Positions 45,302-61,964 of a stretch of DNA of 64,000 nucleotides are shown here, one piece after another. Position 1 is the first letter of the stretch. Every line of letters begins with the position of its first letter. A program made the position numbers and the translations under genes. The notes beneath the pieces are model-generated. The model searched no databases. It was not told the origin of the DNA and saw only the letters and a list, made by a program, of their open reading frames with translations. This stretch comes from a virus (taxonomy: Duplodnaviria; Heunggongvirae; Uroviricota; Caudoviricetes): the IMG/VR virus record IMGVR_UViG_3300024341_000001, one strand, 5' to 3'.

Positions 45302-45490
45302 TCATGAATTTCTAAATACTCTTACTCCTGTATCATATTCATCTTCAGTAATTTCTATATGATAAAGCATTACCGTATTTTTGCCTAGTTTGTGTTCTAC
45401 ACATATAAAATCGCTTAAGCTGCCGCGTATAAAAGCGGTCTTCAATTTAGCATATGGAGATCTTTTAATTGTAGCCATATAGTATTTCAT
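45302..45490 (-). CDS. small hypothetical protein
   Basis: ORF only. Confidence 0.25.
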   Translation of the reverse strand: MKYYMATIKRSPYAKLKTAFIRGSLSDFICVEHKLGKNTVMLYHIEITEDEYDTGVRVFRNS

Positions 45491-45906
45491 AGTACTCCTG
45501 CCATTACTAATGTGCGTTTTAGATTTTGTGATATATATTCATCAGCAACCCTTGGATAAATATACTTAAATGCGTTAACCTCGGGAAATGGAGGTTTGTC
45601 TGGAAGATTTACCATCGACGTACATTTCATATAATCGATATTAGGTAACGGCTCAACAGTGATCTTGAATAAATAGAGATCTTTGGCCGGTAAATATGTA
45701 AACTGTCCAAGTTCCTCGATTACAGCTGTCTCTGGTACATCATAGTTAGTTTCTTCTTTGACCTCACGAATGCACGCTTCAAGAAAATTCTCATTAGGAT
45801 CAACACCACCTTTGGGAATATCCCAAATTTTCTGTCCTGTTGCGTGGCATACAAGAAACACGGTGCCATCAGTGATAATGGCACCGGCAGATATTTTCTT
45901 AGGCAT
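45487..45906 (-). CDS. Nudix hydrolase
   Basis: Nudix box GGVDPNENFLEACIREVKEETN. Confidence 0.65.
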   Translation of the reverse strand: MPKKISAGAIITDGTVFLVCHATGQKIWDIPKGGVDPNENFLEACIREVKEETNYDVPETAVIEELGQFTYLPAKDLYLFKITVEPLPNIDYMKCTSMVNLPDKPPFPEVNAFKYIYPRVADEYISQNLKRTLVMAGVL

Positions 45907-46306
45907 TTTCGTTCAGAATCTTCACTATAGCTCGAGATCGCTCAAGTAACGTTTTTCCAGTATAATTGGCTTCTTGTAATATATGAAAAACACGAAATTC
46001 TTCTGGATTAAGTGTATCTGCATTAAATTCATCCATCCAGTCAAGTTTCGCCTGAACAAGGTCGATTTCCCTCTCTAACCGCTCAAGTTCCTCTTTTAGT
46101 TCATCTCTAGTAACTATCGCTAGTTCGCAGTCCGTACTGAGTAAAGTATTTCCAATTGTACCGGTTACTGGGTCTTTTGCTGAAAATGTACAGACCGCAC
46201 CCATAGATATTGGATGTGTATACACTTCATATGTTTTGCCGAGTTCATAGTTATGACTATTACTATTTTTGCGAGGAACGATCTTTGATCCTAATTTTAT
46301 ATTCAT
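45899..46306 (-). CDS. hypothetical protein
   Basis: ORF only. Confidence 0.35.
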   Translation of the reverse strand: MNIKLGSKIVPRKNSNSHNYELGKTYEVYTHPISMGAVCTFSAKDPVTGTIGNTLLSTDCELAIVTRDELKEELERLEREIDLVQAKLDWMDEFNADTLNPEEFRVFHILQEANYTGKTLLERSRAIVKILNENA

Positions 46307-47376
46307 TTTGGTATCACCTGATGTAAGAGTTTTTTGTATGCTTCCGCGTCGAGCTGCCGGCCGTCTAATAATGTAAACACAAATCCCGCACGGCTGGTTT
46401 TGCCGTAGGCTTGTGTAATCTTTAACGCGGCTTCTTTTCGAGACAGTAATTTACAATCATTCGCAAATACTTTCATATGCTCGACTATTTTTTCAACTTC
46501 CTTATTGGCATCACATAATCTTGAAATGTCTCCTTTAGCTATTTCAGCGCATTCAAAATCATATGTATTGGCAATATAATTATAAAAATCTTGGTACTTG
46601 GGTCTACCATAAAGTGTATAGGCTTCCAATAAATTATTTATACTGAGATCGCTTTTAAATGCGTGCACAGCCAAATATTTATCGCCTTTGATCTTTTTTA
46701 TGTGTTGATCCAAATCATAGTATAAACAGACCCCCTCCTTACCATCGAATCTTTGTACCTCCTCTAATAAATGCTCTACAGATTCAAAAGTAAAAGATGC
46801 AGGCCTTTCAACGCCAAGCTGACGAGCTATGAGGTCCAATGAAGCTTGAGTGTATAAACTATAGTCTTCGTGCCTTATTATACCTACTAAGAACAATCGC
46901 GGAGTTTTTCCTAAATCCAATACAATTTTATTTTTTGGACTATACCATTCAAATATACGGGTGCATGTTTCATCAGAAAAATCAAATGCCTTGGGAAACT
47001 CTTTTTTGAAAAACTTGATTTCATCAAAATTCTCAAAAATATCGGCATTAAATGTACCTCGTGTACGTATGATAAGTTGTCCTTTGTAAGGAGTTACTAT
47101 TAATGCACTACCGTCGATCTTCTCTACAGCCGTAGTATTGATTAAACTCTGCGGAGGCGGTACTAAATTATCTTTTTCATTCCAATTAAAAAACTTTGGA
47201 AAGCTGGGGCTAACTAAATAACCGTCTTCGGTCCAGATAGAACTTCGAAATATCAGGTTCATCTTGTCCCAAGCACACCCCTGATACTGTGGTGTTATTA
47301 ATACTAATCTTTCCCCGTACTCATTAGAGTATTTTTTAATGAAGTCTTTGTTCTCGATAAGTAACGTAGCTTTCAT
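46303..47376 (-). CDS. RNA ligase-like nucleotidyltransferase (Rnl1-type, lysine-adenylate motif I)
   Basis: Motif I VEKIDGSALIV (KxDGS). Sits beside Pnk, as T4 Pnk does with Rnl1. Confidence 0.45.
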   Translation of the reverse strand: MKATLLIENKDFIKKYSNEYGERLVLITPQYQGCAWDKMNLIFRSSIWTEDGYLVSPSFPKFFNWNEKDNLVPPPQSLINTTAVEKIDGSALIVTPYKGQLIIRTRGTFNADIFENFDEIKFFKKEFPKAFDFSDETCTRIFEWYSPKNKIVLDLGKTPRLFLVGIIRHEDYSLYTQASLDLIARQLGVERPASFTFESVEHLLEEVQRFDGKEGVCLYYDLDQHIKKIKGDKYLAVHAFKSDLSINNLLEAYTLYGRPKYQDFYNYIANTYDFECAEIAKGDISRLCDANKEVEKIVEHMKVFANDCKLLSRKEAALKITQAYGKTSRAGFVFTLLDGRQLDAEAYKKLLHQVIPK

Positions 47377-59917: not shown

Positions 59918-60271
59918 TTATTTTACTGTTGTGTAATAAGCCGCTACTGCTATCGGTTCCGGTGTTTGTTCATCGAAAAATAAGCGATGCGTAGTTCCGT
60001 GTGTATCGACATTGGTAAAACATACTTCACCATTATCGACCATATCGGTCATCGCCTGACTTATTTGATATTGCTTTACAAAGTAACCGGTCGATCGTAA
60101 CTGCTTTTTAATTTGTAGGGTAGTAACAAACCCCTGTTTTTCAATCAATTCCAGTGCTGTATCATGTATAACTTCATCATTCACTGGTACACAAAGAGCG
60201 CTTCCAACTTGTTTCAGTTGCCCGGCACGTTGTAACGTGGCGAGTGCTGCTGCTAAAGCTTTGTTTGACAT
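59918..60271 (-). CDS. hypothetical protein
   Basis: ORF only. Confidence 0.35.
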   Translation of the reverse strand: MSNKALAAALATLQRAGQLKQVGSALCVPVNDEVIHDTALELIEKQGFVTTLQIKKQLRSTGYFVKQYQISQAMTDMVDNGEVCFTNVDTHGTTHRLFFDEQTPEPIAVAAYYTTVK

Positions 60272-60438
60272 ATTATTTTTCCCATATTATAAATGAAAAC
60301 CAGATAAGGATTAAAATCAATTGCAGTACATTACCAACTGTTGTCAAAATCCCTCTGGACTTGAAAGGGCCTTTACTATTAAGAATAACCATGTCGGTAT
60401 AAAGGCTATAAGTACCGCCACGATTTGTTTTAAGAATT

Positions 60439-60729
60439 TCATTTTACACCGAGAATACGTGCGACGGTATCTTGGAAGTTAACAATAAATTTCCTGTAAT
60501 TTGCTGGAGTAAGTATTGAATCCAAATTCTCGTTTTCTATACGGTCGTCAATTTCGAGTTTCGCCGTAGCCAACAGTTTTCGTTTAAATTCATCGCTTTG
60601 TAAATATTCGTTTAAGCCGGCTAAAATACGATCAGCATTTTTCTTTATAACAGTGTTGATAATTTTATCCGCATTCTCTCGGACTTTCTGATCGACTAAT
60701 ACTTGTAATGCAGGTGTTAGCTTTTTCAT
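60439..60729 (-). CDS. hypothetical protein
   Basis: ORF only. Confidence 0.35.
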   Translation of the reverse strand: MKKLTPALQVLVDQKVRENADKIINTVIKKNADRILAGLNEYLQSDEFKRKLLATAKLEIDDRIENENLDSILTPANYRKFIVNFQDTVARILGVK

Positions 60730-61964
60730 CCTTTTACCTTTATTAGATATCGAATAGTTAGTTGTTCTTCCTGGTATACTATAAACTCATTGTTTCTTAG
60801 ATCAGCCCCGCCTAGAGCGGTAAGACTATCATAATCTCCGCGTTCACGTAATTTCTTATGAGTTAATTCAGACTGCCAATGCTCGTGACGTCGTACAGTT
60901 AATGTATTGCCCATATGAAATTCAAATAATCCTAAGAATGCCGTGTTTTGATTACCACGTGCCCAATAAGAATTATTACCAGACGTATATCCAAATGACT
61001 TTTGGAATTTGTCCGCACCATATATACCGTACCCAAACATCTTGCCAGTTATTACGGCGTTCGTAGGTCGTACCAGTAATCCTGTTTGCAATATACTCCA
61101 CCAATTTTCATTACGTGACCCATGCCAATACAGTTCTGTGGTTTTATTTTTGGAACTCGCGAGATTTTTAGCATACTTATCAGCTGAGGAAGTATGCACA
61201 ATTTCATAAGCAGTTAAAAGTCTGTTGGCGTCGTTACCCATAGCCTTTAGAATTTTCTGCTCTGTTTGTTTGTCTTCAACGAGTTTGCATTCAACACCGA
61301 TGGCGTCCAAAATTGTATAATTGGATTTAGTGGTTTGTATAGTTGCAGCCTGTGCGGACACTTGACCGGCCATAACGTCCAATGTATCTTGCTCTGCGGT
61401 TATAAAATTCTGTAGTCGTAATTTCATTTGTGGATTTGTGTCTTTGTATAGAATATGATCTTTTACATTAGACATACGACGTGGAATAACTCCGTATAAC
61501 AGTATTAATTTTTCATTGACTTCATCTGCGTCAACCGAACATTTATTCACAAATATCGTGAGTTCGTTCATAATTTTTTGCGCTTCATTTACTTGTGCTT
61601 GTGTGACAACTTTTGCATCAACCGTATAATTATCATCGATCGATTTATTTGCGTAACCCTGTAACAGAGTTACGAGCGCATTAATATTTCCGTCGGAAAT
61701 TGTAAGTAGTTTTGAAGTAGTAGTTGGTTTTATAAATAAATGCGATTGATCTGTGTAACCCTTTTTTACCTTTTCATTAAACTTACTATTCCACTGTTTT
61801 ATCGGGTAAGTCTGATTAGACGTTGTGACACCGATACGCCCCCATGTGGCGGTAAATGTACCGTCATCATTATCATGCATATCGTAATATTTATTATTAT
61901 TGTCAGTCGTAACCATTACCAAATGTTTGTCAGCGTTCATCTTGATGGGGGTTGTACTAAGCAT
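60726..61964 (-). CDS. PARP-family ADP-ribosyltransferase with an N-terminal WGR domain
   Basis: WGR motif FTATWGRIG...KGY. Catalytic LYWHGSRNENWWSILQTGLLVRP...GKMFGYGIYGAD resembles PARP1 [23 protein letters not shown]...GYMFGKGIYFAD. A candidate catalytic Glu lies in LGLFEFHMG. Confidence 0.8.
   Translation of the reverse strand: MLSTTPIKMNADKHLVMVTTDNNNKYYDMHDNDDGTFTATWGRIGVTTSNQTYPIKQWNSKFNEKVKKGYTDQSHLFIKPTTTSKLLTISDGNINALVTLLQGYANKSIDDNYTVDAKVVTQAQVNEAQKIMNELTIFVNKCSVDADEVNEKLILLYGVIPRRMSNVKDHILYKDTNPQMKLRLQNFITAEQDTLDVMAGQVSAQAATIQTTKSNYTILDAIGVECKLVEDKQTEQKILKAMGNDANRLLTAYEIVHTSSADKYAKNLASSKNKTTELYWHGSRNENWWSILQTGLLVRPTNAVITGKMFGYGIYGADKFQKSFGYTSGNNSYWARGNQNTAFLGLFEFHMGNTLTVRRHEHWQSELTHKKLRERGDYDSLTALGGADLRNNEFIVYQEEQLTIRYLIKVKG

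Follow-up and report, generated by a model that had tools for sequence, protein, structure and literature searches.

A 64,000-nucleotide stretch of DNA from a Caudoviricetes virus (IMG/VR record IMGVR_UViG_3300024341_000001), hereafter referred to as the window, was found to encode four enzymes related to nicotinamide adenine dinucleotide (NAD+), namely, a PARP with a WGR domain, the NAD+ synthetase NadE, a predicted nicotinamidase, and a Nudix hydrolase similar to NudE of phage T4. According to our reading, to which we give a probability of roughly 0.55, these enzymes plausibly raise NAD+ flux and clear NAD+ breakdown products during infection as a loose, host-dependent set and not as a closed circuit. 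The first-pass annotation had described the same genes as a self-contained module of NAD+ consumption and regeneration. The four open reading frames (ORFs) that it named were all found on the minus strand at the positions given below and carry the domains claimed for them, with domain matches far above chance; a self-contained circuit was not supported, since PncB and NadD were not detectable in the window and the genes lie in three blocks. Thus, the identities of the PARP, nicotinamidase, NadE, and NudE-like protein on which that picture of NAD+ turnover was built were retained, and the single module was not.

60726-61964, minus strand: protein of 412 aa composed of a WGR domain, a putative helical region, and a PARP catalytic domain (Pfam PARP and WGR)
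59068-59916, minus strand: single-domain NAD+ synthetase NadE, 282 aa, with the PP-loop SGGLDS at residues 47-52
51101-51982, minus strand: predicted long-form nicotinamidase, 293 aa, the first of four cassette genes
45487-45906, minus strand: T4 NudE-like Nudix hydrolase, 139 aa (PF00293, E-value = 1.5e-14; phrog_1185, E-value = 1.2e-26)

The catalytic domain of the PARP matched Pfam PF00644 with 79.9 bits (cut-off 26.7, E-value = 2.4e-22), and the WGR domain, with the motif W41-G42-R43, matched PF05406 with 28 bits (cut-off 22). The protein also matched phrog_23333 (E-value = 7.6e-53) and, in a phmmer search, the structures of PARP2 and PARP1 (E-value of ~1e-13). In the alignment with human PARP2 and PARP1, residues H281 (WHGSR), Y315 (GIYGAD), and E393 (NNEFIVY) coincided with the catalytic residues, and these three positions as well as G42-R43 of the WGR domain were unchanged across 65 phage homologs. 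The H-Y-E triad, apparent at the first reading, was thereby confirmed: the alignment was inspected for a missing catalytic His, Tyr, or Glu, and all three were present. The Pfam PARP_reg model was not matched; nevertheless, phmmer alignments with PARP1 fragments span residues 120-328 of the query, starting ahead of the ADP-ribosyltransferase (ART) fold. Clade 1 bacterial PARPs (Clostridiales, Cytophagales) likewise escape PARP_reg (PMC5966428). The arrangement of WGR and H-Y-E catalytic domain, with a putative helical region between them, is shared with the active bacterial PARPs of Herpetosiphon aurantiacus and Clostridioides difficile CD160 (PMC5966428); those enzymes have a PARG (DUF2263) partner, whereas none is detectable in the window, and the activity of the phage protein is predicted from its sequence.

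The genomic setting of phage PARPs was surveyed in 68 phage loci (67 from IMG/VR and one from a Cellulophaga phage). A Macro gene ended ~11 nt upstream of the PARP gene in 51 of them, an RlaP-type nucleotidyltransferase was found nearby in 12, and the neighbours of PARP in other phages were represented by Macro, RlaP, ligases, and replication genes. The same WGR-PARP family with an invariant H-Y-E triad is carried by phages of 100-180 kb with Macro-PARP pairs (IMG/VR L004-L069), Cellulophaga phages phi17:2 and phi4:1, and XacN1, whose PARPs were 24-46% identical to that of the window. In the Macro-PARP phages, Macro precedes PARP, whereas none was found in the window or beside PARP in its close relatives L003 and L118. 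Thus, the PARP lineage of the window lacks the usual Macro partner.

The protein encoded at 51101-51982 represents a divergent long form (insert of ~60 aa), and it scored below the family cut-offs (22.7 against 27 for Pfam isochorismatase and 43.9 against 174 for NCBIfam PRK11609). Its PDB sequence matches with an E-value < 0.5 were nicotinamidases without exception, and its isochorismatase-like fold was closest to solved nicotinamidases. The triad D42/K185/C231 aligned with D10/K94/C133 of the P. horikoshii enzyme, the metal ligands were represented by D84 and H86 (SIDTH) and H151 (WPYHC), and both the triad and the metal site were unchanged in 28 homologs. In Peribacillus glennii (L089), a 51%-identical nicotinamidase gene is followed by NAPRTase (PncB) and then NadE, and in a Bacteroidales metagenome-assembled genome (MAG; L100), a 35%-identical homolog lies between PncB and a glutamine-dependent NadE. 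Since the residues, fold, PDB matches, and gene context of homologs agree, the protein is predicted to be a nicotinamidase and not a generic isochorismatase; the PncA-like hydrolase proposed at first therefore stands, and the protein did not align solely with non-nicotinamidase isochorismatases when this was looked at. The bacterial pncA-pncB-nadE clusters, which also include that of Bacillus sp. V5-8f (L088), thus contain the same long-form nicotinamidase family (51%, 35%) with NadE adjoining. They differ from the window in having PncB in between, whereas the window has no PncB and its nicotinamidase gene is coupled to genes of a von Willebrand factor A (vWA) protein, a PP2C-type phosphatase, and a kinase.

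The NadE protein matched PF02540 (205 bits, E-value = 1.3e-60), TIGR00552 (182 bits, cut-off 63.65), and NAD synthetases from the PDB (E-value = 1.5e-39), which substantiated its assignment to the final step of NAD+ synthesis. It has no glutaminase (CN-hydrolase) domain and aligns only with the C-terminal synthetase half of glutamine-dependent enzymes, so it is taken to be of the NH3-dependent type. Its closest relatives were NadE proteins of related phage contigs (46-51% identity), with bacterial NadE proteins at 40-47%, and recent capture from the host was rejected on these grounds. As a separate observation, the NadE of the window was only 46-51% identical to NadE of related phage contigs, compared with 66-80% for the flanking genes; the gene either evolves unusually fast or has been swapped within the lineage.

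Over its full length, the Nudix hydrolase is homologous to T4 NudE (gene e.1), with an identity of about 34% (33.6%, coverage 88%, E-value = 6e-8), and the nudE genes of 1,273 phage records showed 31-41% identity to it across 85-96% of its length. The Nudix box G33-Y55 (GGVDPNENFLEACIREVKEETNY) agrees with GX5EX7REUXEEXGU except that the last G is replaced by N, which distinguishes it from T4 NudE, as does its position in an RNA-repair operon. Comparisons with PDB and NCBIfam were ambiguous (Ap4A hydrolase, Dcp2, RppH, and the Nudix domain of NadM). The substrates reported for T4 NudE are ADP-ribose, FAD, and Ap3A (PMC9503650). For the suggestion that the protein could be an ADP-ribose pyrophosphatase, the evidence was mixed: homology to NudE supports it, whereas the best PDB matches favour Ap4A hydrolase and Dcp2, with ADP-ribose pyrophosphatases at an E-value of ~1e-3. 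Judging from the sequence, ADP-ribose is a plausible but not a specific substrate. The start and stop codons of the Nudix gene overlap neighbouring genes of the operon, which is tightly packed and retains the same order in the related contig L102:

43734-47376, minus strand: RNA-repair operon Rnl1-p135-Nudix-p62-RlaP-PNKP (Pfam HAD_PNKP, RlaP, and RNA_lig_T4_1)
46303-47376, minus strand: Rnl1-like RNA ligase
44582-45298, minus strand: RlaP nucleotidyltransferase
43734-44594, minus strand: PNKP

Metagenomic contigs, the longest of 215,168 bp, encode proteins identical to those of the window, and these exact matches indicate that the window is part of a jumbo phage genome of ~215 kb. The readable sequence comprised the 64 kb window with ~8 kb past one end and ~4 kb past the other. 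Every window ORF of 170 aa or longer, as well as most of those between 100 and 170 aa, was scanned with Pfam. Sequences of PncB, NadD, and Macro from phages and bacteria served as phmmer --max queries against all six-frame window ORFs with a minimum length of 50 aa.

A number of these results weigh against the four genes forming one functional unit. No PncB, NadD, NadV, NMNAT, PnuC, or NadR was detected in the 64 kb window by the Pfam scans; the phmmer queries gave nothing below E = 0.3, a regular-expression search of the window for the HIGH motif gave nothing, and the ~4 kb and ~8 kb read beyond the window ends contained no NAD genes. No eraser of ADP-ribosylation (Macro, PARG, or ARH) was found in the window by Pfam scans or by tblastn and phmmer with the phage Macro partner. 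The four genes are spread across 16.5 kb amid about 30 others, each translationally coupled to unrelated partners, and they fall into three separately conserved and inherited blocks: (a) the PARP-NadE block, (b) the cassette that starts with the nicotinamidase gene, and (c) the RNA-repair operon, which contains the Nudix gene, the product of which has an Ap4A hydrolase and decapping enzymes as its best PDB matches. Among the 68 phage PARP loci, NadE lay within 10 kb of PARP in three and nicotinamidase in one; the usual partner of phage PARP is Macro (the 51 loci mentioned above). In the related contig L113, where NadE occurs together with DUF7831 and the cassette, the 7 kb upstream of NadE contain no PARP. 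Finally, nicotinamidases at least 53% identical to that of the phage are nearly always the first gene of the cassette, including on bacterial chromosomes where neither PARP nor NadE was found in the vicinity.

In favour of cooperation, the nicotinamidase-NadE pair is the best-supported functional link, as it was encountered again in four or more related phage contigs and forms an operon in bacteria. The two genes are separated by 7 kb in the window, 3.6 kb in L102 and in L118, 4 kb in L113, and 2.6 kb in L107. The order of PARP, NadE, and nicotinamidase does not differ between the window, L003/L102, and L118. Two of the three PARP loci with NadE within 10 kb contain what the window does not: L055 has a NadE-NadD-PncB cluster, and L054 a fused NadD-PncB followed by NadE, both 5-7 kb from PARP, which indicates that full Preiss-Handler clusters do occur beside phage PARPs. 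The L054 fusion (positions 2651-4405) is a 584-aa protein joining a NadD-like nucleotidyltransferase to NAPRTase (PncB), 5 kb from a Macro-PARP pair. The genomes of two larger phages in GenBank were also informative: in LR756511.1 (595 kb), PARP, NadE, and nicotinamidase are all present and dispersed over the genome, and LR756500.1 (462 kb) contains PARP and the nicotinamidase cassette.

From domain identities, catalytic residues, gene order, and conservation, we infer the activities of the enzymes, their cooperation, and the contribution of the host as follows. The PARP, with its intact H-Y-E site, would consume NAD+ and yield ADP-ribose adducts and nicotinamide; by homology, its trigger would most likely be the WGR domain meeting breaks or ends of nucleic acids, as in PARP1-3. 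The nicotinamidase, as the first enzyme of Preiss-Handler recycling, would convert nicotinamide to nicotinate. Nicotinamide is an established product inhibitor of PARPs and sirtuins, and its removal would also be expected to relieve product inhibition of the PARP. The middle steps to nicotinic acid adenine dinucleotide (NaAD), catalyzed by PncB and NadD, would be provided by the host or by the part of the genome outside the window, and the phage NadE, taken as NH3-dependent, would complete the last step from NaAD to NAD+. The NudE-like Nudix hydrolase may split free ADP-ribose, Ap3A, or FAD into mononucleotides.

A rival explanation is that the enzymes do not cooperate at all: the nicotinamidase would act as a sensor or effector of a conflict system within a TerY-P-like phosphorylation switch exchanged between bacteria and phages, the Nudix hydrolase in RNA repair, NadE as a stand-alone enzyme, and PARP in repair, the shared link to NAD+ then being a by-product of a large genome. 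Taken as a whole, this explanation is possible and somewhat doubtful, and the part of it that places the nicotinamidase primarily within its cassette carries a weight comparable to that of our reading. The cassette, block (b), occupies 47848-51982 on the minus strand in the order nicotinamidase-vWA-PP2C-kinase; apart from the nicotinamidase, it consists of the following genes:

50439-51104, minus strand: vWA protein, 221 aa, with the MIDAS motif D36-x-S38-x-S40 (weak Pfam VWA match, E-value = 1e-3; phrog_7371)
49548-50255, minus strand: PP2C-type phosphatase, 235 aa, third cassette gene (PF13672, 36.4 bits, cut-off 24)
47848-49551, minus strand: protein kinase-like protein, 567 aa, fourth cassette gene

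The stop codon of the nicotinamidase gene and the start codon of the vWA gene overlap by 4 nt, an overlap that argues for the cassette as the primary context. The vWA protein was 51-60% identical to the second cassette gene of bacteria and phages. The kinase-like protein has a CPVC zinc-ribbon-like motif at position 284 and a C-terminal extension of ~270 aa; it had no Pfam match of its own, but its counterpart in LR756500.1 matched Pkinase, and along its entire sequence it shared ~33% identity with 567-aa cassette proteins carrying PF00069. A GC-rich hairpin with an 11-bp stem (50404-50430, minus strand) was observed directly after the vWA stop codon, ahead of the PP2C and kinase genes; terminator-like sites in the window as a whole were no more frequent than expected by chance.

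The same four-gene order was found on the chromosomes of Lachnospiraceae and other Clostridia, with ~54-61% identity to the phage nicotinamidase. Cassette order, which likewise speaks for independent function, was conserved in five of seven informative bacterial loci (at least 53% identity; one of the five is a Spirochaetes MAG in which only the first three cassette genes were detected) and in all 10 informative viral loci. It was still recognizable in the 462 kb phage LR756500.1, in which identity falls to 33% and the genes encode 277, 231, 251, and 561 aa. The loci with the cassette, in bacterial genomes and in many phage contigs, include L071-L085, L102-L112, and L117 20543-24559. The cassette thus moves as a unit in bacteria as well as in phages. 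The combination of vWA, PP2C, and zinc-ribbon kinase defines the TerY-P triad, and related modules are anti-phage (PMC11090510). The window cassette resembles this triad in its adjacent, co-directional genes for a vWA protein with MIDAS, a PP2C phosphatase, and a Ser/Thr kinase with a zinc-ribbon-like CxxC (PMC11090510); it differs in its additional conserved first gene, the nicotinamidase, in the different C-terminal extension of ~270 aa on the kinase, in having no match in PADLOC, and in being carried by both phages and bacteria. The translational coupling of the Nudix gene with Rnl1, RlaP, and PNKP, and the position of PARP next to Macro, RlaP, ligases, and replication genes in other phages, also fit enzymes acting apart. 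The TerY-P triad itself was reportedly described by Anantharaman et al. (2012) and Gao et al. (2020). On the other side, a distance of 2.6-7 kb separates nicotinamidase from NadE in several phage contigs, the two genes form operons in bacteria, L054 and L055 have full Preiss-Handler clusters beside PARP, the cassette proteins are not matched by PADLOC, and no paper linking TerY-P to a nicotinamidase was found in the library searched.

Equally tentative is the possibility that nicotinamidase and NadE, possibly with the NudE-like protein, mainly serve counter-defence by rebuilding NAD+ after its depletion by host NADases (TIR, SIR2), with PARP as a minor consumer. Reconstitution of NAD+ by phages is established for NARP1, NARP2, and NARP3 (PMC13464706) and through NadV/NadM/NadR (PMC9503650, PMC7824862); the products of NADases, nicotinamide and ADP-ribose, are substrates of nicotinamidase and NudE-type enzymes; and L113 contains NadE and the nicotinamidase cassette with no adjacent PARP. 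The window set resembles NARP1/2/3 (PMC13464706, PMC9503650) in that phage enzymes would rebuild NAD+ from breakdown products, but the enzymes are entirely different (Adps and Namat, NadV and NMNAT, and PnuC and NadR), and those pathways are complete, whereas the window set would need PncB and NadD of the host. The defining NARP genes were all missing from the window in the Pfam scans and phmmer searches. The Preiss-Handler route, with four steps and dependence on host PncB and NadD, would presumably also be slow in comparison with acute depletion, and no phage experiment on this route was found in the library searched. The enzymes would be equally suited to recovery from host NADase defences and to servicing the PARP, and the two roles would not exclude each other.

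It is rather unlikely that the PARP is a toxin-like transferase that modifies host proteins during takeover, like Alt and Mod of T4, and not a break-activated repair factor. ARTs and PARPs of jumbo phages have been proposed as modifiers of host proteins (PMC7824862), the gene lies within a block of small early-type ORFs, and no eraser was found adjacent to it; however, WGR and its G42-R43 are conserved in all homologs, this domain couples PARP1-3 to DNA breaks (PMC5966428), and most phage homologs are paired with Macro in replication and repair neighbourhoods.

The weakest proposal, that the PARP is the vPARP-like part of a phage-encoded vault-like particle, is improbable. Eukaryotic vaults consist of three types of protein, namely, the major vault protein (MVP), vPARP, and a TROVE-vWA protein. 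The elements of the window that touch on this proposal are as follows:

11262-13742, minus strand: major-vault-protein homolog, 826 aa (MVP_shoulder, E-value = 9e-27; Vault_3)
39031-40821, minus strand: Ro60-like protein with TROVE and vWA domains
42078-42151, minus strand: tRNA-Ala(TGC) (Rfam), 1.3 kb from the Ro60-like gene

Among GenBank phages, MVP homologs were found in only two others, both huge. In one co-directional 12 kb region of LR756500.1 (18929-30871; L116), the order is PARP, R2K ATP-grasp, AAA, RNA ligase, HD and kinase, MVP-like, and Macro. No Y RNA was detected in the window by Rfam at gathering thresholds, tRNA-Ala being the only match. Ro60 homologs were common in actinophages (358 records). 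According to a 2026 preprint, ADP-ribose is bound in the shoulder of the human vault. Were the vault-like proposal true, nicotinamidase, NadE, and NudE would sustain and clear an ADP-ribose process on an RNA-repair cage.

Within block (a), the gene order is PARP-p96-p117-NadE-p192-p124-DUF7831, and it is retained in L003/L102 (PARP 68% identical) and in L118 (a 215 kb NCBI contig), where DUF7831 directly follows or overlaps NadE. Two small genes of this block deserve description:

59918-60271, minus strand: p117, a small conserved ORF separated from the downstream NadE by a 1-nt gap
57729-58145, minus strand: DUF7831 protein, 138 aa, linked to NadE throughout the phage lineage

The p117 gene is kept upstream of NadE in L003/L102 (63% identity), and ORFs of its size occupy its position in L113 and L118; it weakly matched an ORF of LR756500.1 that adjoins the MVP-like gene, and it had no convincing Pfam match (best 0.018) and no PHROG match. 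The p192 and p124 ORFs were considered as a cryptic NadD and rejected, as they had no nucleotidyltransferase motif and no family matches. The DUF7831 protein has the invariant motifs FGxN, QAVxRxLxN..G..TK, and GxGxA and an only weakly macro-like fold, and it may be an ADP-ribose-binding or -processing domain. In a contig resembling a temperate phage (L115 519-1325), DUF7831 adjoins a YAcAr SLOG gene. The NadE-linked DUF7831 and the TerY-P-like cassette with nicotinamidase are the less expected items of the window.

The window as a whole has a phage-like GC content of ~0.36 and no near-identical DNA in GenBank phages, since megablast of positions 58000-62500 against them gave zero matches. The host is probably a gut bacterium of Clostridia or Lachnospiraceae. 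Between 43.7 and 62.7 kb, all substantial ORFs are on the minus strand, with frequently overlapping start and stop codons, and the stretch is part of a long co-directional run of repair and conflict genes and not a single module. Operon boundaries could not be drawn, because promoter-like and terminator-like sites were about as numerous in the window as expected by chance (79 versus 78.7 and 14 versus 13.6, respectively). PADLOC did not match the PARP, NadE, nicotinamidase, vWA, PP2C, kinase, or DUF7831 proteins; its sole strong match was an unrelated reverse transcriptase, and the Nudix hydrolase weakly matched the candidate family PDC-S07. The window also encodes a ClpB-like protein, ClpP, two RNA ligases, PNKP, and RlaP, as well as the following:

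24830-30910, plus strand: fused RNA polymerase beta-like (Rpb2) and beta'-like (Rpb1) subunits in one ORF of 2026 aa
21116-23535, minus strand: bpMoxR-type AAA ATPase (E-value = 3.5e-46) and the next ORF
16549-17565, minus strand: retron-type reverse transcriptase (PADLOC RT_XIII, E-value = 3e-71; Pfam RVT_1)

The ORF after bpMoxR encodes 425 aa with no family match and may be a vWA or beta-propeller partner.

The general idea of phages that both make and consume NAD+ is already in the literature (PMC11662467, PMC7824862), and the window is a partial case of this known theme. Jumbo phages that join NAD+ synthesis with NAD+ consumers, PARP included, have been described (PMC11662467), and phage PARPs, salvage through NadV/NadM/NadR, and the handling of ADP-ribose by Nudix enzymes have been covered (PMC7824862, PMC9503650). 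The window resembles the 'NAD-jumbo phages' (Li et al. 2024, Microbiome, PMC11662467) in combining nadE-type synthesis with PARP-type consumers, and the roles proposed for those phages, feeding the phage's own enzymes and counter-defence, match those considered here. They carry complete salvage or Preiss-Handler pathways, such as pncB-nadD-nadE, whereas the 64 kb of the window contain NadE and nicotinamidase only, and nicotinamidase is absent from the text of PMC11662467. The window differs in its partial, 'bookend' set of enzymes, in its PARP lineage with no Macro, and in a nicotinamidase that is part of a TerY-P-like cassette also present in the probable host clade.

The cassette is widespread: gut Clostridia and their phages have the nicotinamidase gene fixed before a vWA-PP2C-kinase switch, and no description of the cassette was found in the library searched. 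Should this switch indeed read or control nicotinamide or NAD+ status, it would connect NAD+ breakdown in a new way with phosphorylation signalling in the conflict between phage and host. NAD+ is a central resource contested by bacteria and phages, and the tested countermeasures NARP1/2/3 use routes other than Preiss-Handler. The lineage studied here points to a cheaper strategy, in which the phage would supply only the entry (nicotinamidase) and the exit (NadE) of the host Preiss-Handler pathway, alongside its PARP.

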